The notes under the pieces: model-generated | What the model saw: only the letters and a program-made list of their open reading frames with translations | What the model was told of the DNA's origin: nothing | The model's database searches: none | Source of the DNA: an uncultured Acidobacteriota bacterium | Lineage (GTDB): Bacteria > Acidobacteriota > Blastocatellia > Pyrinomonadales > Pyrinomonadaceae | Assembly (NCBI GenBank): GCA_963772405.1 | Contig: CAVYWT010000003.1 | Coordinates: forward strand, 24,911-88,910 | Length of the DNA stretch: 64,000 bases | Direction of reading: 5' to 3' | Shown here: positions 3,555-62,450 of the stretch, piece after piece | Layout: each line of letters begins with the position of its first letter | How positions within the stretch are numbered: the first letter of the stretch is position 1 | Position numbers and translations under genes: made by a program

Positions 3555-5534
3555 ATGTCTTTTTGCAGGACCATTTTTCTTGTCGCACTTTTTCTGAGTT
3601 CAATTTCTGCGGTTACCGCCCAGACTGTTTGGTCGCCCGAGATGCAGGTAAAGACGCGGGCACTCGGCAGCCCCCGGATCTCGCCCGACGGCACACGCGT
3701 CGCCTATACCGTCAATGATGCCGTAATGACCCCCGAGAAGAGCGAATTCGTGACCCAGGTCTGGCTTGGATCATCGGACGGGCGGGACAATTATCAGCTC
3801 ACGTTCAACGATAAATCTTCGACCAATCCGAGATGGTCGCCCGACGGCAACTGGATCGCATTTACCTCCAACCGAAAAGACAATAAAAACAATCTCTATG
3901 TGCTTCGAGTTTCGGGCGGTGAGGCCGAGCAGCTCACCGATCTCAAGAGCAGCATTGCCGATTTCGAATGGTCACCGGATGGCAAATGGATCGCTTACAC
4001 GATGGCCGACGCAAAATCCGAGGACGAGGACAAAAACGATAAGGGCAAGAACGATTTTCGATGGGTCGACGAAAACCAAAAGATGGCCCGGCTCTACGTC
4101 ATCCCGGTCGCAAAAGATGAGAGCGGAAAACGAGTAGCAAATAAACTAACGAGCGACAGCCGCCATGTGATCAGCTTTAACTGGTCCCCGGACGGCTCAA
4201 AGATCATTTTCAGCCACGCGAAATCACCGGCTGCAGGTGTTTGGCCGTCGATGGATGTCGGCGTGGTCAATGTGGCGGACGCAAAGTCAACTCCGTTCGC
4301 GGCTACTGACGCAGCCGAGAGCTCCCCGGTCTATTCGCCGGACGGCAGGTGGGTTGCAATGTCTGTCAGCGACCTCCCCGTACGATGGGCGCAAAGCAAT
4401 CGGATTGCCATCATTTCGGCGGCAGGTGGAACTTCACGAATGATGCCGATCTCATTCGACGGCCAGCCGAACATCATCGGCTGGTCGCCGGACGGGACAA
4501 AGCTTGTGTTCAGCGAGGGAAAGGGAACGGGCACGGCGATCTATGAAGCAAACGTCGCCGCCGGGACGATCAAAGAGATCAAGTATTCGAACTCTGTGAT
4601 AACAGCCGTCTCAATGTCGAAGGACGGTTCGGCCTACGCATTTGTCATTCAGTCGAGTGATAAACCTCCCGAGGTGGCGGTCATAAGATCCGGTCAGGAA
4701 AAGTTGACCCAGATATCGCGCGTTAATACCGAAATGATGAAGATGCCGTTGGGCAGGACCGAAGTGATCAAGTGGAAAAGCACCGACGGCCGCGAGATCG
4801 AAGGCCTGCTGACGTATCCGGTCGGCTACACGGCAGGGACGAAAGTTCCCTTGATCCTGAATATCCACGGCGGACCGGCGGGTGTCTTTCAGCATTCGTA
4901 TATCGGCGGCCGTGGTTCTTATCCGATCGCGACATTTGCGTCGAAGGGCTACGCGATCCTTCGCCCCAATCCAAGAGGTTCGTCCGGATACGGGACTGAG
5001 TTCCGGCGTGCAAACATTAAGGACTGGGGTGTCGGTGACTATCAGGACCTGATGACGGGCGTCGATACCGTGATCGCGATGGGAGTTGCCGATCCGGATC
5101 GTCTCGGCGTTATGGGCTGGAGCTATGGCGGCTATATGACGTCGACGATCATCACCAAGACAAAACGCTTCAAGGCCGCGTCGGCCGGAGCTCCGGTGAC
5201 GAATCTCATGAGTTTTACGACGACGGCCGACATACCCGGGTTCATTCCCGATTACTTCGAGGCACAGTATTGGGAAAAACCGGATGTCTACGCGAGGCAC
5301 TCGGCGATGTTCAATATCAAAGGCGTCACGACACCGACGCTTGTGCAGCACGGCGAGGCTGACGTGCGCGTGCCGATCTCACAGGGCTACGAGCTTCATA
5401 ACGCACTAAAGGCGCAGGGCGTGCCGACGCGAATGATCGTTCTGCCGCGCCAGCCGCACGGCCCGAACGAGCCAAAAATGCAAGTCGCTGCCATGCAGAC
5501 CAATCTGGACTGGTTTGAGAAGTATTTGAAGTAA
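3555..5534 (+). CDS. S9 family serine peptidase (prolyl oligopeptidase / acylaminoacyl peptidase) with an N-terminal TolB-like beta-propeller
   Basis: Repeated SPDG..IAF propeller motifs, GWSYGG nucleophile elbow, C-terminal D and H regions, a signal peptide, and AAGGAG upstream of the ATG. Confidence 0.9.
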   Translation: MSFCRTIFLVALFLSSISAVTAQTVWSPEMQVKTRALGSPRISPDGTRVAYTVNDAVMTPEKSEFVTQVWLGSSDGRDNYQLTFNDKSSTNPRWSPDGNWIAFTSNRKDNKNNLYVLRVSGGEAEQLTDLKSSIADFEWSPDGKWIAYTMADAKSEDEDKNDKGKNDFRWVDENQKMARLYVIPVAKDESGKRVANKLTSDSRHVISFNWSPDGSKIIFSHAKSPAAGVWPSMDVGVVNVADAKSTPFAATDAAESSPVYSPDGRWVAMSVSDLPVRWAQSNRIAIISAAGGTSRMMPISFDGQPNIIGWSPDGTKLVFSEGKGTGTAIYEANVAAGTIKEIKYSNSVITAVSMSKDGSAYAFVIQSSDKPPEVAVIRSGQEKLTQISRVNTEMMKMPLGRTEVIKWKSTDGREIEGLLTYPVGYTAGTKVPLILNIHGGPAGVFQHSYIGGRGSYPIATFASKGYAILRPNPRGSSGYGTEFRRANIKDWGVGDYQDLMTGVDTVIAMGVADPDRLGVMGWSYGGYMTSTIITKTKRFKAASAGAPVTNLMSFTTTADIPGFIPDYFEAQYWEKPDVYARHSAMFNIKGVTTPTLVQHGEADVRVPISQGYELHNALKAQGVPTRMIVLPRQPHGPNEPKMQVAAMQTNLDWFEKYLK

Positions 5535-8655: not shown

Positions 8656-8662
8656 CAGCGCT

Positions 8663-8782
8663 TTCAAGTTTCAAATCTCAAATCTCAAATTTCAAGTTTC
8701 AAATCTCAAATCTCAAATTTCAAATTTCAAATCTCAAATTTCAAATTTCAAATTTCAGATTTCAGATTTCAAATCCCAAATT
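8663..8782. repeat. Tandem heptamer array A: about 17 x TTCAAAT/CTCAAAT/TTCAAGT/TTCAGAT
   Basis: The direct 7-nt periodicity can be read straight from the sequence. It starts 8 nt after the tyrS stop, and the hspR stop codon lies in its last units. Confidence 0.95.
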
Positions 8783-9191: not shown

Positions 9192-9197
9192 TCGGAA

Positions 9198-9293
9198 GAA
9201 GTCAGAGGTCAGAATTCAGAATTCAGAATTCAGAAACCAGAAACCCGAAACTAGAAACTAGAAACGCAGAAACTAGAAACCAGACCTCTTACT
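9198..9293. repeat. Tandem heptamer array B: GTCAGAR/TTCAGAA units grading into ACYAGAA/ACCAGAA units (about 13 units)
   Basis: Direct 7-nt periodicity. It lies inside the operon between the dnaJ stop (9310) and the hspR start (9191). Confidence 0.95.
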
Positions 9294-22512: not shown

Positions 22513-25500
22513 ATGAAGATTTCCCTGCATACCGTAGTGCTTTACGCGACCTTTGTACTTCTTACTTCGTCGCTCGCCGCCGGACAGGATCTGGACGATG
22601 TCACCGTTTCCGGAAGGATCACCGATTCAAATAACCTGCCTATACTTGGTGCCGTAGTAACTGCGACGCACATCCAGTCAAATTCAGAGCGCGCGGTGAT
22701 CTCCGGCGAGGATGGGTATCGTTTCATCGATCTCAAACCCGGTACGTACAAAATAAAAGCCGGTGCGGCCGGCTTCGGTATCAGGGAAACGGTTGGAATC
22801 GAAATACTCTCCGGCCAGAACGTGCGGCTCGATTTCAGGCTCTCACCCGCGGAGGTTACCGCCGCGACGACGGTTTCGATCACCGACGACGACATTCCCG
22901 AGGTGGACACAACGCGGATCGTCGTCGGCGGAACGCTTTCTCAACGCGAGATCGAAGAACTGCCAAATAACTCGCGGAACCCGCTGGATCTCGTGCTGAC
23001 GCTCGGCGGGACGTCGGAAGAACAGCTTTCGACGAGCGGCATGGCCGAAGACCGATTTCAGTCGCCGCCGACCGCACCATTGGAACAGGGAAACTTCTCT
23101 CTGTCGGGCGGTGTCGCGTATTCCAATAATCTGACGATCGACGGTCTCGACAATAATGACGACCGGTCGTCGCAAGACAGATTTCGGCCGTCCCTCGAAG
23201 CGATCGAGGAGGTCCAGGTTATTTCGAACCAATTCTCATCCGAATACGGACGAGCGTCCGGCGGCCGGATCAATCTCCGAACGCGGGCCGGTTCGAATCA
23301 TTTTCGCGGTCGCCTGTTTATGTTTTTTCGCGACAATAACTTGAATGCGAATAGTTGGTATAACAACAGCCGTACGCCCGCCGTCGGCCGAACGCCCCTG
23401 ACCGAATACAACCCGGGTTTTACGTTGGGCGGACCGGTTCGGGTGCCGTTCTACAACGGAAGGAACAGGACCTTTTTCTCCGTCGCGTATGAACACAACA
23501 ATCTTGTCGATACGACATTCATAGACACTTGGGTGCCGGTCGGCGTGAATCCGCACTTTAGTCTCCCGGCGCCGACGACCGCGACATGTCCGCCGACTAT
23601 TGCCTCCTGCAATGACTCGAGCAGTTCTCCGCCAACGCCGATTCTTCCATACCAAGCCGCTCTGGACACGCCCAACGTCAATCATTCCTTTACAGCCCGG
23701 GTTGATCATAATTTCTCACAGGCGAACAGCTTCACGTTCGGCCTGCAATTCGGTCGCAGGCACAATCGGCGAACCACCTCTGCATCGACGACCAGGCTGG
23801 ACGACGCGCTTCAGGTTCGGAACACTGCGTCCGAGGCCTACAACTTTACGGACAATCACGTTTTCGGCGGCGAAAAGCGTAAACCAGATTCGCGCGCCAG
23901 TATTCGATCTACCACCCGAGTTTTCAGACGAGTGATCCGTTTGGCCCGGTCGTGTTGATCGGATATACAAATCCGGCCGGTGGTGCTCAAACATTGGTAG
24001 CGGGAAATTCGACGGCGGCGATCGCCGGTGACGCGACGGGCTTTCCGCAGAATCGGCGGGAGACGCGCATGCAGGTTCAGGACTCGTTCAGTTACGTCGC
24101 GGGCAGCCACACCATGAAGACGGGATTCGATGTCATGAAGGTTAGGTCGAAAGCGATCGGGCTCGGGGACGCAACAGGTACCTTTAATTTTAGCGGGGTA
24201 TTGAATTTCCAGAATAACGTTCTGTCGCGCTACCGGCAGAATTTCGGCACTGCTTCGGACGTCACGAATAGCTATATCGGGCTGTTTCTCAACGACACGA
24301 TCAGTTTTCGAAGAGATCTGACGATCAGCTTCGGGCTTCGCTACGAACGAGAAACCGCCGTCGAAGACAAGAATAATTGGGGCCCGCGATTCGGATTCGC
24401 GTGGGATCCGTTTAAGAACGGGAAAGGCGTCGTTCGTTTTGGCGCCGGTATTTTTTACAACCGAGTGCTTCTCCGCACCGTCGCAGATTCGATCCAGAAC
24501 ACAGGTGGGAATCAAGTCTCGTTCGATACAAATCTAATTCCCGCTCGTTGCGACGGACAACCGCCGGCGCGACGTGCTTGCGGCGATCGCAGCAAACTTT
24601 CCGGGGGCGTTCGCGTCCGTCGATGCCATCAGGAATCTTCTGGCAGCCGTCTGCCCAAACGTGACGCCGGCACCGCCCGCTCCGTGCACGACCGATCTCG
24701 GCTTTCTCTCCAGTGTGACAAGCAGCGGGAACCCGCTCAGAACGGTCGACCGAGATCTGAGAATTCCTGAAAGCTATCAATTCAACATCGGATTCGAACG
24801 CGAAGTTCGAAGGGGATGGGTTTTCGAAGCTAATTACACGTGGAACAAGACCGCTCACCTGTGGCGCGACCGAAACGGGAATGCGCCTCGGTTGCCATCG
24901 GGCTACGCTGACTGGACGGCGTGGCTCGTCGATCATCCATTCGTATTGTCACCGACTCGCATGTATACATTTTTTCGAGGATCGGCGAGCGACACTAACG
25001 GCCTGCATGCAAATTCTCCAGCGAGCACGACGATCTGCAGCGTCACGACAGCAAATTGTTTTGTGAATCTCAACACGACGAGTGGCTCAACCACCGCCCC
25101 ACTGGTCGCCGTGCCGGGGACAAATAACAATGCGACCGGCGGTCCGATCGGTATTCCGCTGGCCGCGATCAGCCATCTCAGGCCAGATCCGACCCTTAAA
25201 GAAACATCGATCATAGGGTCGGCTGGAAACGCATTTTATCAGGGCTTGGTCTTACAGCTTCGAACCAGGCATCGGAAACTCGGGCTGGGGTTCGGGTCAT
25301 CGTTTCGGTTCAACTACACGCTTTCGAAATCAATGGACGACGGGCTAAACAATACTTCGAACGCGGAGATCAACGGAGATTTTCGCCGCGAATGGGCGCG
25401 GACTTTGCAGGACCGCAGACATCGTGTCGCTTTCTCGGGCATATTCGAAACGCCTTGGTGGCTGGGACGACTGAGGCTCGCGCCGCTCTATCGTTGGGGC

Positions 25501-26094: not shown

Positions 26095-26850
26095 ATGAGC
26101 CACGTAAAAGAGAGCACAGGCGTGCTCACCGAAGTTTCAATCGAGTCGGTCCTTCTCGACGCCGATCTATTCGTAAAATACAGTTCACCGGACAAGGCTT
26201 TTAAGCTGCTCCATGATTCGCTTGAACGAAGTCCGCGGTCGATCGCCTTCCGCGAGAAACTCCGCGACATCTGCATCAAGCAAAAGAACCTGAACGAAGC
26301 GGCTCGTCAGTGTCTCGCGCTGGTAAGTCTTTATATCGGCCGGGAAGAGTTCGATCTGGCATACGATCGCCTGCAGGAAGCGAAGCTGCTCGACCCGCGT
26401 GTTTCTGTGGCACCCGGCCTGGAAGCGATCCGCCGAGCACGCCGCCCCGACTTTGCCGTCAATCGCGATCGTTCTCCGCAGAAGGTTCGGACTGACGTGA
26501 CGTTCGCCGGCAACCTTGGCTACGTCAGCATCTTTGACGCGGTTCAGGTCATCGAAAGCTCGAAAATGACGGGCCTGCTGGTCGTTAAATCGGATCTCCA
26601 TCTGGCTAACGTTTCATTTAATGAAGGAAAGATCGTCGATGCGGAATGCAACGGTCATAATGGGCACCATGCGTTCCGCGAAGTGATCGAGATCAACAGC
26701 GGTACGTTCGAGTTTTCGACTTCGGAAAACGAGTTTCCGGTCGTTCTTAACGTTGTCAGCAATACAAACTTTCTGCTCGACGTCCTAACCGAGCTCGACA
26801 ACGAGCGCGCCGAGAAACAGGGTCTTCGAAATGTCGGTTCGGAGCTGTAG
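26095..26850 (+). CDS. TPR-like N-terminal region plus a DUF4388-like domain protein
   Basis: The C-terminal half (GNLGYVSIFDAVQVIESSKMTGLLVVKSD..ANVSFNEGKIVDAEC..GHHAFREVIEINSGTFEFS) fits the DUF4388 pattern. ATG 26095 is preferred over the TTG at 26080. Confidence 0.6.
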   Translation: MSHVKESTGVLTEVSIESVLLDADLFVKYSSPDKAFKLLHDSLERSPRSIAFREKLRDICIKQKNLNEAARQCLALVSLYIGREEFDLAYDRLQEAKLLDPRVSVAPGLEAIRRARRPDFAVNRDRSPQKVRTDVTFAGNLGYVSIFDAVQVIESSKMTGLLVVKSDLHLANVSFNEGKIVDAECNGHNGHHAFREVIEINSGTFEFSTSENEFPVVLNVVSNTNFLLDVLTELDNERAEKQGLRNVGSEL

Positions 26851-26936
26851 TCAGAAGTCAGAAGTCAGAAGTCGGAAGTCAGATTCTCTCCGAAAACTGC
26901 TGAATTCTGCCTTCTGCCTTCTGACTTCTTTTTCTT
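26849..26936. repeat. Tandem heptamer array D (GTCAGAA x ~5) with an inverted arm (TTCTGCC/TTCTGAC) and a T-run; terminator-like
   Basis: gaagtcagaagtcagaagtcggaagtcaga .. loop .. ttctgccttctgccttctgacttc followed by TTTTTC. It begins at the stop codon of the upstream gene. Confidence 0.85.
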
Positions 26937-26995
26937 GACTTAACATTCTCTTTACCCCAAAATATAGTGCACCTCGAGTTCCCCAGCACTATAGA

Positions 26996-29900
26996 ATGTT
27001 TAAGCTTCAACGTTTAGAAATCACCGGTTTCAAGTCGTTCGCGGACTATACCGAGATCGTGTTCACCGGCAACGGTATTACGGCCGTCGTTGGCCCCAAC
27101 GGCTGCGGCAAGTCGAACGTATCCGACGCCATCTCATGGGTCCTTGGCGAACAGCGGGCCAAGTCGCTCCGCGGAGGCGAAATGAAGGACGTCGTCTTTC
27201 AGGGTTCGCGAAACCGCAAACCCGGCGGGATGGCTGAAGTTGTCCTCCACCTCGTTCGTGACACAGAGGCGTTCGACATCGACGAGAACGAACTCGAAGA
27301 CATCGATGAAACACTCAGCGCACTGGACGAGACGGCGGTTGATGTCGATGCTCTCGAAGCTGAAACCTTAGACGCGGAAACACTCGAGGTTATGACGCTT
27401 CCGGCCGACGCCGAAGAGATTCGCGATCCTCAATCCGCGATCCACATCGGAGATGAGTTTGAGGTCGAGAAAGTGCAGGCGGCGCAGGTCGGATCCGTCC
27501 AGACTGTCGAGCGAACGATAAAAACAAAACGTCACTGGCGTCCGCGTTCGTTCGCGCTCGACTTTGCCCCCGGCGAGGCTATCGCGGTAACACGACGGCT
27601 CTACTTGTCGGGTGAAAGCGAATATCAGCTCAATGGCAAAACTTGCCGGCTGCGCGATATTCAGGACCTCTTTGCTGGTACTGGTTTGTCGGGCGCGCAT
27701 TACGCGATCATCGAACAAGGCCGGATCGGGCAGATCCTTTCGGCAAAGCCGTCGGACCGCAGAAATCTGATCGAGGAAGCGGCAGGAATATCCAAGTTCC
27801 GTACTCGGCAGCGTGCCGCGGAAACGCGTCTTGATTCGGCGCGGACAAATCTCGGACGCATTTCGGATATCGTTTCCGAGATCGAGAAGCATGCCAACTC
27901 GCTGCGGCGACAGGCGTCAAAGACACGCCGCTACATCGTACTTCAGGAAGAATTTCGTGTTCTGCTTCGACAGCTTTTCGCCGCCGAAGGAAAATTCCTC
28001 TCTTCTGCAATTGAGAATTTTGAGAAGCAGCTGGCCGAAGCAGTCGAAGTCGAAAGGGGATTTGCGGCGAAGGTTGCGGCCCAGGAAGAAGCGTTTCGCG
28101 ACGCCACTCAGCGTGCTCGTTTTGTGGAAGAAACGCTCGCCGAGATCCGACACCGCCATGCCGAGAACGCGCTCGAACGCGACCGCGCCGAACGCGAGCA
28201 TCGCTATCAGGCAGAACAGATCGTCAATCTGAACAATCGCTCGGAATCCGTCCGTGGTGAGATCGATGCGGTTGAGCAGCGCTTGAAACTGATCGAATCC
28301 GAACTCGCTCGACTGCACAAAGAAGACGAAGCGGAAAGTGCCGAGGCTGATGCGTCCCGCCTCATCCTACAGGAAGCAGAAAAGCAGTATGCATTAAAGC
28401 TCGACGATGTGCAGAAGATCGAAGAAGAACTCGAAACGCATCGCACCGAGCTGATGAAGCACACCGCCGCCCTCGAAAGGTTTGACGAGATAGCACGACA
28501 GCTCGACGCAAACGCAGAGCGGCTGAACGAACGGCTGCAAGGACTCGAGCGTGAGGAGGTTCGCGCCGCCGAGGCGTTCGATGCGTTTGTAAAAGAATCT
28601 TCCGACCTCGAATCGAACCAGAAAAACGAAGCGCTGAAACTTGAATCGCTTCAGGCGGAAAAGGTGGAATTGCTTTCCGCGACCGCTGCGGCCCGGGAAA
28701 AACTGCGTGCGTCCGAAGAGTCGCTTCGGAACCTGGAAGCCGAGCAGCTAAAAACGAGTAACCGGCGCGACACGCTTCTCGAACTGGATGAGAAACGGGC
28801 GGTCTACGCGCCGCAGATCCAGAAACTTTTTGCCGAACAGGAGAACATCGGTGTTCGTCTGTCGGGCGTTCTCGCGGATTTTCTTTCCGCGGATGAGAGA
28901 GCGGAACTCGCTATCGAGAGTTTGTTCGGACAGCGGCTGCAGACGGTCCTGGTCGAAAGCGTTGACGATGCGAAAATGGTTTCGGCGTGGCTTGAGAACA
29001 ATGCGATAGGACGCATCACTATCCTCGCGGCCCCGTCGCTTCAAGGGCGAAATACGAGATCGTCGCCGTCGGGTGAGTTTGTCCGCGACGTGCTTGGTGT
29101 CTCGGGTGACCTTCTGGAAACATTGCAAAACGCGTTTCCCCGCGAATTATCCGCCAGGTTGATCGAGAGCATCGGCGATGTCGAGCCAAACACCGGCGAA
29201 ATTTGTGTCACTCGCGGCGGCACCGTGATCAGCCGCGAAGGATTGTTTGTCAGCGGACGCGAAGCGGCCGATGACCGGCCAAATGCTTCGCTTCTCGCTT
29301 TCAAGCGCGAGCTGACCGGACTCGGAACGACGCTCGCCGCGCTCGGTGATGAAATTTCGATCGCGCGTTCGATCGCCGAAGAAGACGGACGATCACTCGC
29401 ATCCATCGAAGAGAAAACCGTCGATCTCCAGTCGCTCATCATTAAGGTCGAGCGAGGCTTGCACGGACTCGATATTCAGCGCTCTACAACCCGCCAGGAG
29501 ATCGAGCGGGCCGAGCGACACAAGAAAGTCGTCGCCGAAGAACAGAAACAGACACGTGAAGAGCTTGAGCAAAACACTGTGCGTATCACCGAAGCGGCGG
29601 AGAATCGCCGGACGGCCGAACAGTATCGCGACAGTGCGCGGAGTGAGGTTGAGCGTGTCAACACGCTTCTTGCGGAGGCCCGGTCAAGATCCGACGCCGA
29701 AAATTCGGTCGTCAACGAAAAGCGGACACTGGCCGCAACTTCCGGAGAACGTCGCCGCTCAGTGCATTCTGCACTAAAGCGCGTCGAGAATGAGCAGAAG
29801 GAACTCGAAACACGATCGGCGATGCAGACGGTCGAGTTGAGCGAGATAGATATTAAGATCGCCAGTTTGCGCGAATCGACCGCGGCGATCGCAGACCGGA

Positions 29901-30823
29901 TCGCGGCGACTGAAGTTGAAAAAGCAGCGGAGATCGAAGAGCTGACGGCCGCCATCGCGGAGGTAACGTCTGCACGCGAAGCGGCCGACACGATGAGCGT
30001 TGAATTGGCCGATCTAAATCATCGTTCGGCGGACGCCTTGAACGAGCGTGCGGCGATCGAGGTTCGTCAGGCCGAAGCAGTCACTCAACTCAAGAACGTC
30101 AATGAAAAATGCGTCCAGGAACTGAACACTCCACTCGCGACGCTGATCGAAACCGAAGCGCTCGATGAGGAATTTGAGTTGGAATCGTGCCGCAATACAG
30201 TGGACGATCTTCGCAACCGTCTCGAAGGTTTCGGCGCGATCAACATGCTTGCGGTCGACGAACTCGCAGAGGCCGAAGAGCGTCTGTTGTTTCTCACCTC
30301 GCAGCGACAGGATATTATCGACAGCATTGCTTCGGCTGAAGAAGCTCTTCGCGAGATCAAAGAACGATCACGCGCCCGTTTCCGCGACGCGTTCGAAGCC
30401 ATCAACGCAAATTTCATCGAGTTTTTCCGCGAGCTGTTTGGCGGAGGAAAGGGTGAGATGACGCTTCTCGAAAATGACGACATCCTTGAGGCGGGGATCG
30501 AAGTCGTCGCCCAGCCTCCGGGTAAACGGCTTCAAAATATTCTTCTGCTTTCCGGCGGCGAAAAAGCGATGACGGCGATCGCACTCGTGATGTCGATCTT
30601 CAAATATCGCCCGTCTCCGTTCTGCCTCCTGGACGAGGTCGACGCCCCGCTCGACGACGCAAACGTTGGCCGCTTTGTCGCGAAGATCGCCGATATGGCC
30701 GAGAAGACACAGTTCATCGTGATCACGCATAACAAACGGACGATGGAAGCCGCTCGCGCTCTCTACGGAGTGACGATGCAGGAAGTTGGCGTCTCGAAGG
30801 TGGTGTCGGTGAAGTTTGAATAG
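26996..30823 (+). CDS. smc: Chromosome segregation protein SMC
   Basis: 1275 aa with Walker A GPNGCGKSN, long coiled coils, a hinge, the signature LSGGEKA and Walker B FCLLDEVDAPLD. Confidence 0.95.
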   Translation: MFKLQRLEITGFKSFADYTEIVFTGNGITAVVGPNGCGKSNVSDAISWVLGEQRAKSLRGGEMKDVVFQGSRNRKPGGMAEVVLHLVRDTEAFDIDENELEDIDETLSALDETAVDVDALEAETLDAETLEVMTLPADAEEIRDPQSAIHIGDEFEVEKVQAAQVGSVQTVERTIKTKRHWRPRSFALDFAPGEAIAVTRRLYLSGESEYQLNGKTCRLRDIQDLFAGTGLSGAHYAIIEQGRIGQILSAKPSDRRNLIEEAAGISKFRTRQRAAETRLDSARTNLGRISDIVSEIEKHANSLRRQASKTRRYIVLQEEFRVLLRQLFAAEGKFLSSAIENFEKQLAEAVEVERGFAAKVAAQEEAFRDATQRARFVEETLAEIRHRHAENALERDRAEREHRYQAEQIVNLNNRSESVRGEIDAVEQRLKLIESELARLHKEDEAESAEADASRLILQEAEKQYALKLDDVQKIEEELETHRTELMKHTAALERFDEIARQLDANAERLNERLQGLEREEVRAAEAFDAFVKESSDLESNQKNEALKLESLQAEKVELLSATAAAREKLRASEESLRNLEAEQLKTSNRRDTLLELDEKRAVYAPQIQKLFAEQENIGVRLSGVLADFLSADERAELAIESLFGQRLQTVLVESVDDAKMVSAWLENNAIGRITILAAPSLQGRNTRSSPSGEFVRDVLGVSGDLLETLQNAFPRELSARLIESIGDVEPNTGEICVTRGGTVISREGLFVSGREAADDRPNASLLAFKRELTGLGTTLAALGDEISIARSIAEEDGRSLASIEEKTVDLQSLIIKVERGLHGLDIQRSTTRQEIERAERHKKVVAEEQKQTREELEQNTVRITEAAENRRTAEQYRDSARSEVERVNTLLAEARSRSDAENSVVNEKRTLAATSGERRRSVHSALKRVENEQKELETRSAMQTVELSEIDIKIASLRESTAAIADRIAATEVEKAAEIEELTAAIAEVTSAREAADTMSVELADLNHRSADALNERAAIEVRQAEAVTQLKNVNEKCVQELNTPLATLIETEALDEEFELESCRNTVDDLRNRLEGFGAINMLAVDELAEAEERLLFLTSQRQDIIDSIASAEEALREIKERSRARFRDAFEAINANFIEFFRELFGGGKGEMTLLENDDILEAGIEVVAQPPGKRLQNILLLSGGEKAMTAIALVMSIFKYRPSPFCLLDEVDAPLDDANVGRFVAKIADMAEKTQFIVITHNKRTMEAARALYGVTMQEVGVSKVVSVKFE

Positions 30824-30825
30824 TA

Positions 30826-31056
30826 ACTGTGAGCTGTGAACTGTGAGCTATGAACTATGAGCTATGAGCTATGAGCTATGAGCTATGAGCTATGAGCTAT
30901 GAACTATGAGCTATGAACTATGAACTATGAACTATGAACTATGAACTATAAGCTATGAGCTATGAGCTATGAACTATGAACTACCCTTTCACATTTCATA
31001 GTTCACAGTTCACAGTTCATAGTTCACAGTTCATAGTTCGAAGTTCACAGCTCACA
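30826..31056. repeat. Tandem heptamer array E: about 22 x ATGAACT/ATGAGCT/GTGAGCT/GTGAACT, a 14-nt loop, then about 8 inverted units (ATAGTTC/ACAGTTC)
   Basis: The periodicity and inverted arm can be read directly. It starts 3 nt after the smc stop. Confidence 0.95.
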
Positions 31057-31120
31057 CCTGACTACAAACCCCTCCGCGATTTGCGTCATCAAACCCCCGG
31101 GATAGATAATCCACCCATTC

Positions 31121-31942
31121 ATGCGTATTCATAGATCTATCGTTGCTCTCTTGGCCGCCGTCCTTTTGGCGTCCGCAGGTTTGGCGCAGACCAAACGACG
31201 AACACGGCCGCTCGTGAAAAAGCCAGTCATCACAGTAGCCGAACCAACACCGAGCCCTTCTCCAGCCGAGCCGAGCGCCATAAAGCCCGAACCGAAAAAG
31301 AACGAGAGACCGGCACCTAACGGAAGCACCCACAGAGCAGAGGATCCGCGTCCCAAAATTGAGCCCGTATATTTCTACGAATTCTCGCAGCCCGATTTCA
31401 TGATCAGCAAGATCGTGATCGAGCATGACGAGACGGGACGCGGAACCATCACGTTCACTAAAAAGTTGTTCGGGGACACGGTGACCGATCCGCTTCAAGT
31501 CTCGACGGCAGCTCTAGAGCGCATCAATGCGACGTATGCCGCGCTGAACTTCCTCGAGTCAAACGAAAGTTATCAATACGAAAAAGACTATTCGCATCTT
31601 GGCGTATCGACCTTCAGGCTGAAGAAAGGCGATAGACCGCGTACGACCGTTTTTAACTACACCGTAAATAAGGACGCGAAAGTTCTCGCCGATGAATACC
31701 GCAAACTCGGAAATCAGTTCATCTGGATTTTCGACATAACGGTCGCCCGCGAAAATCAGCCGCTCGAAACACCGAGACTTCTCGATGCGTTCGACGGGCT
31801 GTTGAAGCGCAATGAGATCTCCGATCCATCACAACTACTGCCTATTTTGAAAGACATGAAGGACGACGAACGTATCCCTCTGATCTCGAGGAATCACGCC
31901 GGGAAGTTGGTGGAGAGAATCGAGAAGGGAACGAGGAAGTAG
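31121..31942 (+). CDS. Secreted hypothetical protein
   Basis: 273-aa ORF with a signal peptide (IVALLAAVLLASAGLAQ) and a Pro-rich linker. I recognise no family. Confidence 0.6.
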   Translation: MRIHRSIVALLAAVLLASAGLAQTKRRTRPLVKKPVITVAEPTPSPSPAEPSAIKPEPKKNERPAPNGSTHRAEDPRPKIEPVYFYEFSQPDFMISKIVIEHDETGRGTITFTKKLFGDTVTDPLQVSTAALERINATYAALNFLESNESYQYEKDYSHLGVSTFRLKKGDRPRTTVFNYTVNKDAKVLADEYRKLGNQFIWIFDITVARENQPLETPRLLDAFDGLLKRNEISDPSQLLPILKDMKDDERIPLISRNHAGKLVERIEKGTRK

Positions 31943-32019
31943 TTTCTGGTTCCTTGTTTCTAGTTTCGCTTTGAGCCCGGAGGACGACGACTAGGAACCA
32001 GGAACCAGAAACGAGAAAC
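31942..32019. repeat. Short fold-back element F of GAAACYA/GGAACCA-type units
   Basis: gtttctggttccttgtttctagtttc .. 23-nt loop .. ctaggaaccaggaaccagaaacgagaaacta. It lies between convergent stops at 31942 and 32019. Confidence 0.8.
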
Positions 32020-39926: not shown

Positions 39927-40134
39927 ACTGTGAAGAACTATGAACTATGAACTATGAGCTGTGAACTATGAACTGTGAACTATGAACTATGAGCTGTGAA
40001 CAATGAGCTGTGAACTTTGAGCTGTGAACTATGAGCTGTGACCTGTGAACTACGAGCTATTAACTATGAACCTGGAATTCGTAGATTACCGTTCACAGTT
40101 CCACACGTTCACAGTTCACAGTTCACAGCTCAAA
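39927..40134. repeat. Tandem heptamer array G: about 20 x ATGAACT/GTGAACT/ATGAGCT units, loop, then about 6 inverted units. Same unit family as array E
   Basis: Read directly from the sequence. The inverted arm gttcacagttcacagttcacagctca abuts the nusB stop (40136), and the long arm ends ~45 nt from the kgd start. Confidence 0.95.
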
Positions 40135-40135
40135 G

Positions 40136-40627
40136 TTAAGCAGAGGCGTTTGATTTGCTGTCGGCTTTAGGAGCTTCGGGGGTAGAGGCCTTCTCGAGGT
40201 CAAGCTTGATCGCGTCGAGGATGCCGTTGATGAATTGGGTCGCTTCGAAAGTAGAGAATCGCCTCGCGATCTCTAGAGCTTCGTTAATGACGACGGTGTG
40301 CGGCGTGTCTTCGTGAAGAAATTCGTATACAGCGAGACGAAGGACGTTGCGATCGACCAGGGCCATGCGCTCGATACGCCAATGCTCGGCACGTGTCCTG
40401 ATCTTGTCGTCGATCGATTCGCTGTGCTTGAGTGTTCCGAGAACGAGGTTGTTGGAAAAAGTCCGAGTTTTTTCGTCAAAGTCGCCATCGCCGAGTTCTT
40501 TCCAATAGTCGTCGGTCGAAAACTCAAGTGAGTTCTTTACGACATCAGCGGCGAACAACATCTGTAAAGCGCATTCGCGCGCTTTCCGGCGAGTTCCTGA
40601 ACCCTTAGCTTCTTTTTCAAACGACAT
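40136..40627 (-). CDS. nusB: Transcription antitermination factor NusB
   Basis: 163 aa with RRKARECALQMLF and INEALEIARRF motifs. It overlaps the end of ribH, the classic ribH-nusB order. Confidence 0.9.
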   Translation of the reverse strand: MSFEKEAKGSGTRRKARECALQMLFAADVVKNSLEFSTDDYWKELGDGDFDEKTRTFSNNLVLGTLKHSESIDDKIRTRAEHWRIERMALVDRNVLRLAVYEFLHEDTPHTVVINEALEIARRFSTFEATQFINGILDAIKLDLEKASTPEAPKADSKSNASA

Positions 40628-62277: not shown

Positions 62278-62443
62278 GAAGTGAAAAGGTGAAAAAGTGA
62301 AAAGGTGAAAAAGTGAAAAGGTGAAAAAGTGAAAAAGTGAAAAAGTGAAAAAGTGAAAAAGTGAAAGGTTAGATATCGTGACAATGATTTCTAACCTTCG
62401 CACCCCTTCACTCTTTCACCTTTTCACTCTTTCACTTTTTTAC
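62278..62443. repeat. Tandem octamer array H: 11 x GTGAAAAG/GTGAAAAA, a central 8-bp hairpin, then an inverted arm (CTTTCAC/CTTTTCAC units)
   Basis: Read directly from the sequence. It fills the spacer between convergent stops at 62275 and 62451. Confidence 0.95.
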
Positions 62444-62450
62444 CTTCGAA

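Follow-up and report, generated by a model that had tools for sequence, protein, structure and literature searches.

The 64,000-nucleotide stretch analyzed here (hereafter the window) corresponds to positions 24,911 to 88,910 of contig CAVYWT010000003.1 in GenBank assembly GCA_963772405.1, which represents an uncultured soil bacterium of the phylum Acidobacteriota, family Pyrinomonadaceae. Directly downstream of its smc gene the window carries a long inverted pair of seven-nucleotide tandem repeats, designated array E, which is the subject of the present study. A first-pass annotation, made from the letters alone, had drawn attention to this array, and the array was found to be real, with 22 sense heptamers facing eight to ten antisense heptamers and a predicted RNA fold with a z-score of about -12. 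Array E occupies precisely the space from the smc stop codon to the conserved block that precedes the next gene (Table 1). Its first unit begins at 30829, i.e., 5 nt (TAACT) after the stop and not 3 nt as originally stated, while Tandem Repeats Finder (TRF) places the start of the array at 30830.

Parsing of the 5' arm into units returned nine copies of ATGAACT, nine of ATGAGCT, two of GTGAGCT and one each of GTGAACT and ATAAGCT, in agreement with the TRF description of the sense array (period 7, 22.0 copies, 91% matches, score 217). The annotated order of sense units, loop and antisense units is right, but most of the supposed loop consists of decayed antisense units: the apex opens with A-CCC (30983-30986) and continues as the degenerate units TTTCACA and TTTCATA (30987-31000). 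The 3' arm proper is built of GTTCACA, GTTCATA, GTTCGAA and GCTCACA units, so that eight clean and two decayed antisense heptamers can be counted up to 31056.

RNA folding of both strands, which had been proposed as a check, yielded minimum free energies of -104.3 kcal/mol for the plus strand and -114.5 kcal/mol for the minus strand, compared to about -54 and -62 kcal/mol for shuffled sequences (z = -11.5 and -12.0, respectively), and none of 200 shuffles was as stable. It had also been supposed that only the inner eight or so units can pair, leaving about 100 nt of single-stranded periodic sequence. Neither part of that picture was upheld. The 56-nt 3' arm matches 14 registers of the 5' arm about equally well (44-48 Watson-Crick and 2-7 G-U pairs of 56), and the predicted fold pairs the outermost and the innermost units while the middle is bulged out; with the pairing register thus degenerate, the single-stranded tract is not a defined feature. 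The sequence immediately following the stem, CACACCTGAC (CACACCTGACTAC), contains no T-run, and E therefore lacks the stem-loop with an immediately following T/U run that defines an intrinsic terminator; a scan with the intrinsic-terminator consensus returned zero sites at E. A scan of the window against Rfam likewise gave zero matches, including none to rRNA.

The end of the E hairpin coincides exactly with the start of the block at 31057, a block whose sequence suggests a promoter-like element, while the hairpin sequence itself differs among relatives. As the annotation had noted, a second array of the window, array G, is composed of the same family of units (about 20 plus about 6 heptamers). 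It lies at the 3' end of nusB, and its short arm adjoins the nusB stop codon (40136-40138, minus strand). The long arm is thus the stop-adjoining one in E and the stop-distal one in G, which argues against a directional role of the surplus units.

Table 1. Features of the window, with coordinates counted from its first nucleotide.
Feature	Position	Strand	Basis or description
Array of E's class	8662-8782		TTTCAAA x17
Array of E's class	9197-9284		AGAAGTC/CAGAAAC
Array D, sister hairpin, AGTCAGA x5 / TTCTGCC x3	26849..26929	+	TRF; between the stop of a DUF4388 gene and the conserved block that is probably the smc promoter
smc (1275 aa)	26996..30823	+	Open reading frame (ORF) list; Pfam SMC_N 1.7e-60, SMC_hinge 9.6e-13; TAG stop 30821-30823
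Array E, 5' arm, 22 tandem heptamers (A/G)TGA(A/G)CT	30829..30982	+	TRF and unit parse
Array E, apex (18 nt)	30983..31000	+	Unit parse
Array E, 3' arm, 8 good antisense heptamers	31001..31056	+	TRF row 30988-31056, period 7
Block between E hairpin and next gene (ACAAACC..ATTTGCGTCATCAAAC..GATAATCCA..ATG)	31057..31120	+	Conserved by eye in L003-L007 and L012-L013
Gene downstream of E (273 aa), no Pfam match	31121..31942	+	ORF list, Pfam
Array of E's class	31993-32019		AGGAACC
Array G, long arm, about 20 heptamers of E's family (CTATGAA/CTGTGAA/CTATGAG)	39930..40071	+	TRF 39935-40071; unit parse
Array G, short inverse arm, GTTCACA x about 6	40091..40137	+	TRF; a loop separates the two arms
nusB	40136-40627	-	Pfam NusB 1.4e-36
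Array of E's class, 8-mer AAGTGAAA x11 and inverse arm	62279-62448		

Heptamer-armed hairpins in the genome and its relatives

The genome to which the window belongs (3.83 Mb in three contigs, 54% G+C, completeness 89%), which relatives of its smc place in the Pyrinomonadaceae (Acidobacteriota, Blastocatellia), was surveyed for comparable elements. A periodicity detector found period 7 to be by far the commonest, with 435 arrays, followed by period 8 (66) and period 9 (36). Shorter and longer periods (3-6 and 10-12) were all but absent; nine arrays had period 6, for instance, and two had period 10. TRF reported 690 period-7 rows representing 105 unit families, the longest arrays comprising 37 units. 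When arrays of 7-, 8- and 9-nt units were merged, 444 loci were obtained, of which 230 possess an inverse copy (at least two units) within 160 nt, against 15 in a null of shuffled units. The fold-backs display a clear polarity, the G+T-richer arm being the 5' arm in 167 cases versus 50 with the opposite arrangement. It is therefore very probable that E belongs to a genome-wide population of hairpins whose arms are inverted arrays of 7-nt, and sometimes 8- or 9-nt, units.

Within this population E and G are no special pair, their units being one of about 100 families found at about 440 loci. Some 20 dispersed loci carry the E/G family (GTGAACT, ATGAACT, GTGAGCT); the loop of each is unique, and their flanks are unrelated. 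The first-pass annotation had left open whether the family spreads between loci or is regenerated from a common seed; spread is favoured over chance low complexity by the approximately 20 loci in this genome, by the presence of the unit in six of 41 genomes and by its occurrence at the orthologous smc locus of L005 and nusB locus of L121, while the implied special link between E and G did not hold up. Target-site duplications or shared borders of E and G, suggested as a further trace of such a link, were not seen by eye, nor were common borders or target-site duplications seen by eye among the approximately 20 members of the family. Furthermore, an all-against-all comparison of 70 loops yielded two weak pairs only, and matches between flanks were array continuations only. 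When period-7 units were phased, nearly all families proved able to contain GA (TC on the other strand), with 5.1 bits compared to 3.9 for shuffled units, and for most units a phase exists that places TC at the end. This common core, about 1.2 bits over shuffled, is weak, yet recalls the GGGANTN motif of Xanthomonas.

With regard to genes, the positions of the arrays were assessed with a crude, home-made ORF caller, and since the assembly shows apparent frameshifts, both gene calls and exact copy numbers are approximate. Of all arrays, 64% lie fully outside these gene calls. Arrays are present in 20.6% of convergent, 9.4% of tandem and 9.3% of divergent spacers. Their median distance to the upstream stop is 10 nt (tandem and convergent spacers), with one quarter of them touching or overlapping it; in tandem spacers the next start codon is a median of 53 nt away. 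Irrespective of the presence of arrays, more structure was seen in post-stop regions than upstream of divergent genes.

In this assembly mutS (C1:790483-793185) is read in three frames and mutL (C1:451623-453537) in two, while all relatives checked possess open frames of about 900 and about 650 codons, respectively. These breaks are probably long-read indel errors, although a real loss of mismatch repair may have occurred in this strain. As a general cause of the arrays such a loss was rejected, as array-rich relatives encode full-length MutS and MutL.

The comparison of smc 3' regions in related genomes, proposed in the annotation, proved informative. Each close relative possesses, after smc, a hairpin that ends at the conserved block before the next gene, and a hairpin has been kept in this position in 13 relatives while its sequence turned over. 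For example, the E unit is present in L005 (SMC identity 94%) as 15 plus 7 copies, whereas L001 (SMC identity 97%) carries GGGACGA and L002 carries TTGATAA and AGAAAGC; in the latter two the contig breaks inside the array. Other units at this slot are GTGACGA (L004), GTGATAA (L007), GATTTTG (L008) and GTGAATG (L013). Plain hairpins are present in L006 and L009-L012, and in more distant relatives the hairpin is plain or half-periodic. The E apex occurs in L005 as its exact reverse complement (a 20-mer at 5309), the forward form being absent from that locus, and the loop of array D in L002 is, by eye, inverted relative to L001 and L005. These inverted loops suggest that the arms recombine or undergo template switching.

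The nusB slot behaves similarly. L121 carries four plus five units of the E/G family, and L122 retains a remnant (GGTGAGCTGT) with a new (CCCTCTT)7 array behind it; in more distant relatives either the hairpin is another one or the neighbouring gene differs. Fragments of nusB and of the SMC C-terminus from the compared genomes are about 90-97% identical to those of the genome studied here. Near-identical species thus keep the slots but differ in the family and number of the units and in the orientation of the loop. In a scan of 41 genomes, which represents a sample of the genus, three consecutive copies of GTGAACT were found in six and three consecutive copies of GGATTTT in 29, and one near-complete assembly of the same genus (G014) contained no arrays in 160 kb, compared to four in 80 kb for a genome of another family. 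The E/G unit family thus appears, from its sequence distribution, to be young, and its narrow spread combined with some 20 dispersed loci in this genome suggests that families spread among slots and are neither ancient nor independently generated.

Of note, L094, from an 8-Mb genome (G027) of another family of the class, has a heptamer-armed hairpin (CATTTTC/TATTTTC ... GACAAAT) after nusB, in which the polarity is reversed, the pyrimidine-rich arm coming first.

Inverted arrays around PF05635 genes

The genome contains 17-18 matches to PF05635, the family of the 23S rRNA intervening sequence (IVS) protein and of Avd-like four-helix bundles, whereas any such match was present in only one of 14 control genomes. 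An array of at least three units lies within 400 nt of nine of 17 PF05635 genes, compared to 10% at random, and arrays flank the gene on both sides in two of 17, compared to 0.4% at random. By eye, at least 11 of the 17 genes are located in the loop of inverted 7-, 8- or 9-mer arrays. These gene-bearing elements, hereafter cassettes, sit directly after the stop codon of the upstream gene or after a tRNA gene. The test of this association covered the present genome and its relatives. Of 26 cassette loci inspected by eye in six relatives, almost all have arms, also in G014 and G049, which are poor in arrays; among 69 PF05635 genes of eight genomes, 52 possess a flanking array and 26 possess arrays on both sides. 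When the period of the arms was mapped onto the PF05635 protein tree, five changes were required compared to 9-12 in 1000 shuffles, a test that includes orthologues and whose points are consequently non-independent.

The gene-less arrays are connected to the cassettes by their units. The unit is identical to an arm unit of a same-genome cassette at 108 of 431 gene-less loci (null 6.8 ± 2) and within one mismatch of such a unit at 312 of 431, or 72% (null 113 ± 8, or 26%). Furthermore, mapping of the relatives' cassettes onto this genome identified 14 slots, seven of which have kept the gene and seven of which are gene-less; the latter hold six hairpins, most of them with 7-9-nt repeat arms, and one GC-rich palindrome. 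At one of the mapped positions (L184 versus L214) the alignment is collinear and reveals a clean 313-nt internal deletion of the ORF in this genome; the two ends of the ORF, its TTGATAG arms and the genes on either side are unchanged. At another slot, this genome and G031 share a cassette with TAGTTTC arms, while the cassettes of G033 and G051 differ (GGGACTT arms, protein 62% identical). Given the identity of about 90-97% noted above for nusB and SMC, this difference indicates in-place replacement of entire cassettes. Among solved structures, the nearest to the PF05635 proteins of this genome is that of XCC0516 from Xanthomonas campestris (PDB 2GSC), i.e., from the species of the GGGAATC repeats.

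Several cassettes were observed in unusual positions or forms. In L149, L150, L152 and L154 (G057, G051, G014 and G031, respectively, all members of the genus) a PF05635 cassette with GTTGTCA arms lies between clpP and clpX, which usually form one operon, and in the genome studied here a short gene-less hairpin with other units occupies this position (C1:620157-620387). Two heptamer-armed cassettes are located directly after tRNA genes (C1:152711-153073 and C2:179141-179460), the PF05635 gene of the second being broken into two fragments. Lastly, at L163 (G049 C1, around 3088545) a PF05635 gene has GCAGGA/GCAGGG-type arrays on both sides, each exceeding 190 nt and repeating every 6 or 12 nt, so that the arm period of cassettes is not limited to 7-9.

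Possible origin and role of array E

As a single locus, E is an ordinary member of a large class. To our knowledge, an excess of intergenic 7-nt tandem repeats has been on record since the description of the cyanobacterial short tandemly repeated repetitive (STRR) sequences in 1990, and we know of no accepted origin or function for it. Heptamer repeats of this kind comprise the intergenic repeats of Xanthomonas (GGGAATC) and Nostoc (GGGGAYT), the STRR sequences and the TAACTGA repeats of Beggiatoaceae (PMC4692102, PMC4679880). X. campestris has 186 such repeats per genome, 70 of them in inverted pairs and about 90% intergenic; in Xanthomonas the upstream ORF is 28 nt away and the downstream one 160 nt, and the repeats are rare between divergent genes (PMC4692102). 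The arrays described here resemble these published repeats in that they consist of tandem 7-nt units, number hundreds per genome, are strongly intergenic and often form inverted pairs. They share with the Xanthomonas repeats a position nearer the upstream ORF (10 versus 53 nt here, 28 versus 160 nt there) and an enrichment in convergent spacers, although here divergent spacers do not fall below tandem ones (9.3% versus 9.4%), while divergent locations are rarer there. Length and sequence vary between related species here, as they do in Xanthomonas and Nostoc, where sister species differ in their repeats; no function is known for the latter, and slippage is the origin proposed for them (PMC4692102). 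Unlike those genomes, which contain one to three families, the present one harbours about 100 unit families with arrays of up to 37 units, and the E units ATGAACT and ATGAGCT, having no run of G, are not open to a G-quadruplex reading. The connection to PF05635 cassettes is absent from the papers on these repeats (PMC4692102, PMC4679880), and our literature searches found no report of heptamer repeats in Acidobacteria and, among the papers searched, none linking heptamer repeats to PF05635.

The closest known structural analogue of the full-length cassettes is the ORF-bearing IVS of 23S rRNA in Coxiella and Leptospira, whose S23p protein corresponds to PF05635 and whose stem is cut internally by RNase III (PMC4990558). 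In common with these IVSs, E has terminal inverted repeats that form a long stem, has full-length sister elements with a PF05635 ORF in the loop (17 in the genome), and lies inside its host transcript in the sense direction. It lacks two defining features of the IVS, however, as its 18-nt apex contains no PF05635 ORF and it is located between smc and a protein-coding gene and not in a helix of 23S rRNA; moreover, its arms are heptamer arrays of variable length, in contrast to the fixed stem of about 28 bp. PF05635 proteins are also homologues of Avd, a small pentameric four-helix-bundle protein of diversity-generating retroelements (PMC10053308), from which E differs in that it encodes nothing itself.

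Taken together, we consider it reasonably likely that E is a gene-less member of a hairpin population related to the PF05635 cassettes, lengthened by slippage, and perhaps acting as a 3' processing hairpin of the RNase III type, the individual parts of this explanation being of unequal strength. The hairpins and the cassettes have their architecture and unit families in common and are, at one slot, related by direct descent, and a cassette relationship of E itself is favoured by a narrow margin of confidence. E would then either descend from a PF05635-type cassette or be kept up by the same process as the cassettes. Its unequal arms would result from replication slippage, and its loop would flip through recombination or template switching between the arms; the excess of the long arm looks like a by-product of slippage, and the roughly 13 surplus units would have no role of their own. 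Transcribed together with smc, E would form a double-stranded stem at least about 56 bp long. Processing of this stem by RNase III, as occurs for IVS stems, might set the 3' end of the smc mRNA and uncouple smc from the next transcription unit. This role is proposed by analogy, as RNase III cleaves the IVS stems associated with the same gene family and the genome possesses an rnc gene, and it is put forward as a tentative suggestion only.

A number of findings weigh against this explanation. No cassette bearing the unit of E was encountered among the 17 genes of this genome or the loci read in relatives, which comprised all matches of G031, G051 and G018 and only the best-scoring ones of G033 and G057; the nearest cassette unit, GTGAGCA of G031, is one mismatch from GTGAGCT, the outer unit of E. 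No ORF remnant was found in the E apex. The array-poor genomes G014 and G049 still possess seven to eight cassettes, which are therefore not sufficient to generate arrays, and the protein-tree test is subject to the non-independence mentioned above. With respect to a 3'-end function, the arrays of 47 loci are situated in divergent spacers, which offer no 3' end, the stronger fold of E is that of the antisense strand, and in 100 tandem-spacer hairpins the sense and the antisense strand do not differ in fold stability (56:43, p = 0.15). The latter result provides no signature of selection on one RNA strand, and strand-specific RNA selection was accordingly rejected as an explanation of the population; single arrays show only a weak orientation bias (49:33).

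Among the alternatives, the one that survives best, though we judge it unlikely, is that E represents an ordinary hypervariable simple repeat, i.e., a 3' hairpin of smc containing a short direct repeat, whose arms were lengthened independently by slippage in 7-nt steps without any relation to PF05635 and without a selected function of the periodicity. The lack of an ORF remnant or matching cassette is in line with this view, as are the unequal arm lengths that vary between relatives, the graded distribution of unit variants along the arrays and the plain hairpins found at the smc slot in some relatives. In addition, the heptamer excess of many bacteria has been attributed to polymerase slippage (Mrazek 2007, as cited in PMC4692102). 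Independent slippage fails, however, to account for a unit that is confined to six of 41 genomes yet present at about 20 dispersed loci here, for the 72% of gene-less arrays that lie within one mismatch of a cassette arm unit where 26% are expected, or for an arm period that tracks the PF05635 protein tree. Nor can it draw on mismatch-repair loss, which the full-length MutS and MutL of array-rich relatives exclude as the cause.

It is rather improbable that E is simply a selected smc terminator or mRNA-stabilising stem-loop, in which the sequence drifts, a strong hairpin is kept and the periodicity is incidental. The persistence of a hairpin after smc in 13 relatives despite sequence turnover would be expected of such an element, and the enrichment of arrays at convergent gene ends, at a median of 10 nt after stops, points in the same direction. 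Canonical terminators consisting of a hairpin and a T-run occur around E at chance level (20 found versus 19.5 expected), which makes another type of 3' signal plausible. The E stem, however, is not followed by a T-run, is several times longer than termination needs and enjoys no folding advantage on the sense strand, and like elements are present in divergent spacers and inside operons (e.g., clpP-clpX in relatives). This alternative and the slippage-lengthened, cassette-related processing hairpin preferred here are compatible and do not exclude each other.

The possibility that E is a miniature mobile element, of the miniature inverted-repeat transposable element (MITE) type or of the type of repetitive extragenic palindromic sequences and their hairpin-forming doublets (REP/REPIN), mobilised by a REP-associated tyrosine transposase (RAYT) or a similar transposase, is largely refuted and appears very unlikely. 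The population does resemble these elements in consisting of abundant intergenic fold-backs, often located just after stops and forming families with many copies within the genome, which also encodes ten Y1 transposases (PF01797). None of these ten genes, however, has an array within 1.5 kb, where 30% would be expected at random, and on this basis the RAYT/REPIN model was rejected; the arms, moreover, are periodic and variable in length, unlike a fixed palindrome. The MITE model was rejected on the basis of the loop and flank comparisons described above, which returned unique loops and mere array continuations, and neither conserved termini nor target-site duplications were seen by eye. That E is a long-read assembly artefact or chance low-complexity sequence can be practically discounted: although the mutS and mutL frameshifts make small indel errors likely and copy numbers may be off, the E unit is present at the smc locus of the independent short-read assembly of L005, the contigs of two other relatives break within arrays at this locus, and the fold of E is far outside the shuffled range.

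A more far-reaching version of the cassette relationship, which we regard as improbable, holds that the PF05635 protein, an Avd-like four-helix bundle, recognises the repeat register (7, 8 or 9 nt) of the arms around its own gene and causes the elements to spread, be exchanged and grow longer among gene-end slots. The periodic arms may in that case be working parts of an undescribed mechanism of DNA copying or movement, with gene-less hairpins such as E as non-autonomous passengers acted on in trans. If true, such arm recognition would explain why a unit found in six of 41 genomes occupies about 20 loci here, why the arm period follows the protein tree and why the heptamer excess occurs in the same phyla that carry PF05635 genes.

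The present genome, with about 100 unit families and hundreds of fold-backs, represents an unusually rich case, in which the elements occupy persistent gene-end slots yet turn over between near-identical species. The link between the gene-less, cassette-related hairpins and the cassettes turns two poorly understood repeat classes into one testable problem and offers a possible origin for the bacterial excess of 7-base repeats. A practical consequence of the arrays is that short-read assemblies of soil Acidobacteriota fragment where genes end.

Array D and other repeat elements

The sister hairpin on the other side of smc, array D, occupies a slot that holds other units in relatives. Upstream of smc, a nearly invariant block (26930-26995; TTGACTTAACATTC..TACCCCAAAATATAGTGCACCTC..AGCACTATAGAATG) is present in all relatives (L001-L013) and probably constitutes the smc promoter and leader; the hairpin at this slot always ends exactly at the TTGACT of the block. 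At some slots, i.e., C1:2179874-2180130 and the region upstream of smc in L004 and L008, a long, GC-rich and non-periodic palindrome was observed (e.g., GAGTCAGAACCGCGAGCGGTAGCGACCGGGTGACCC ... inverse). These palindromes look REP-like, and the ten Y1-transposase genes could be their partners.

A composite element at C1:1808940-1809098 displays the unit order A-B-loop-A'-B' (AATGGTG and GTGAGCT, followed by CACCATT and CAGCTCA), an arrangement which cannot form a single nested hairpin and which a simple inversion fails to explain. Finally, the 8-mer family GTGAAAAG, represented in the window by the array at 62279-62448, also provides the arm unit of a PF05635 cassette at C2:681702.

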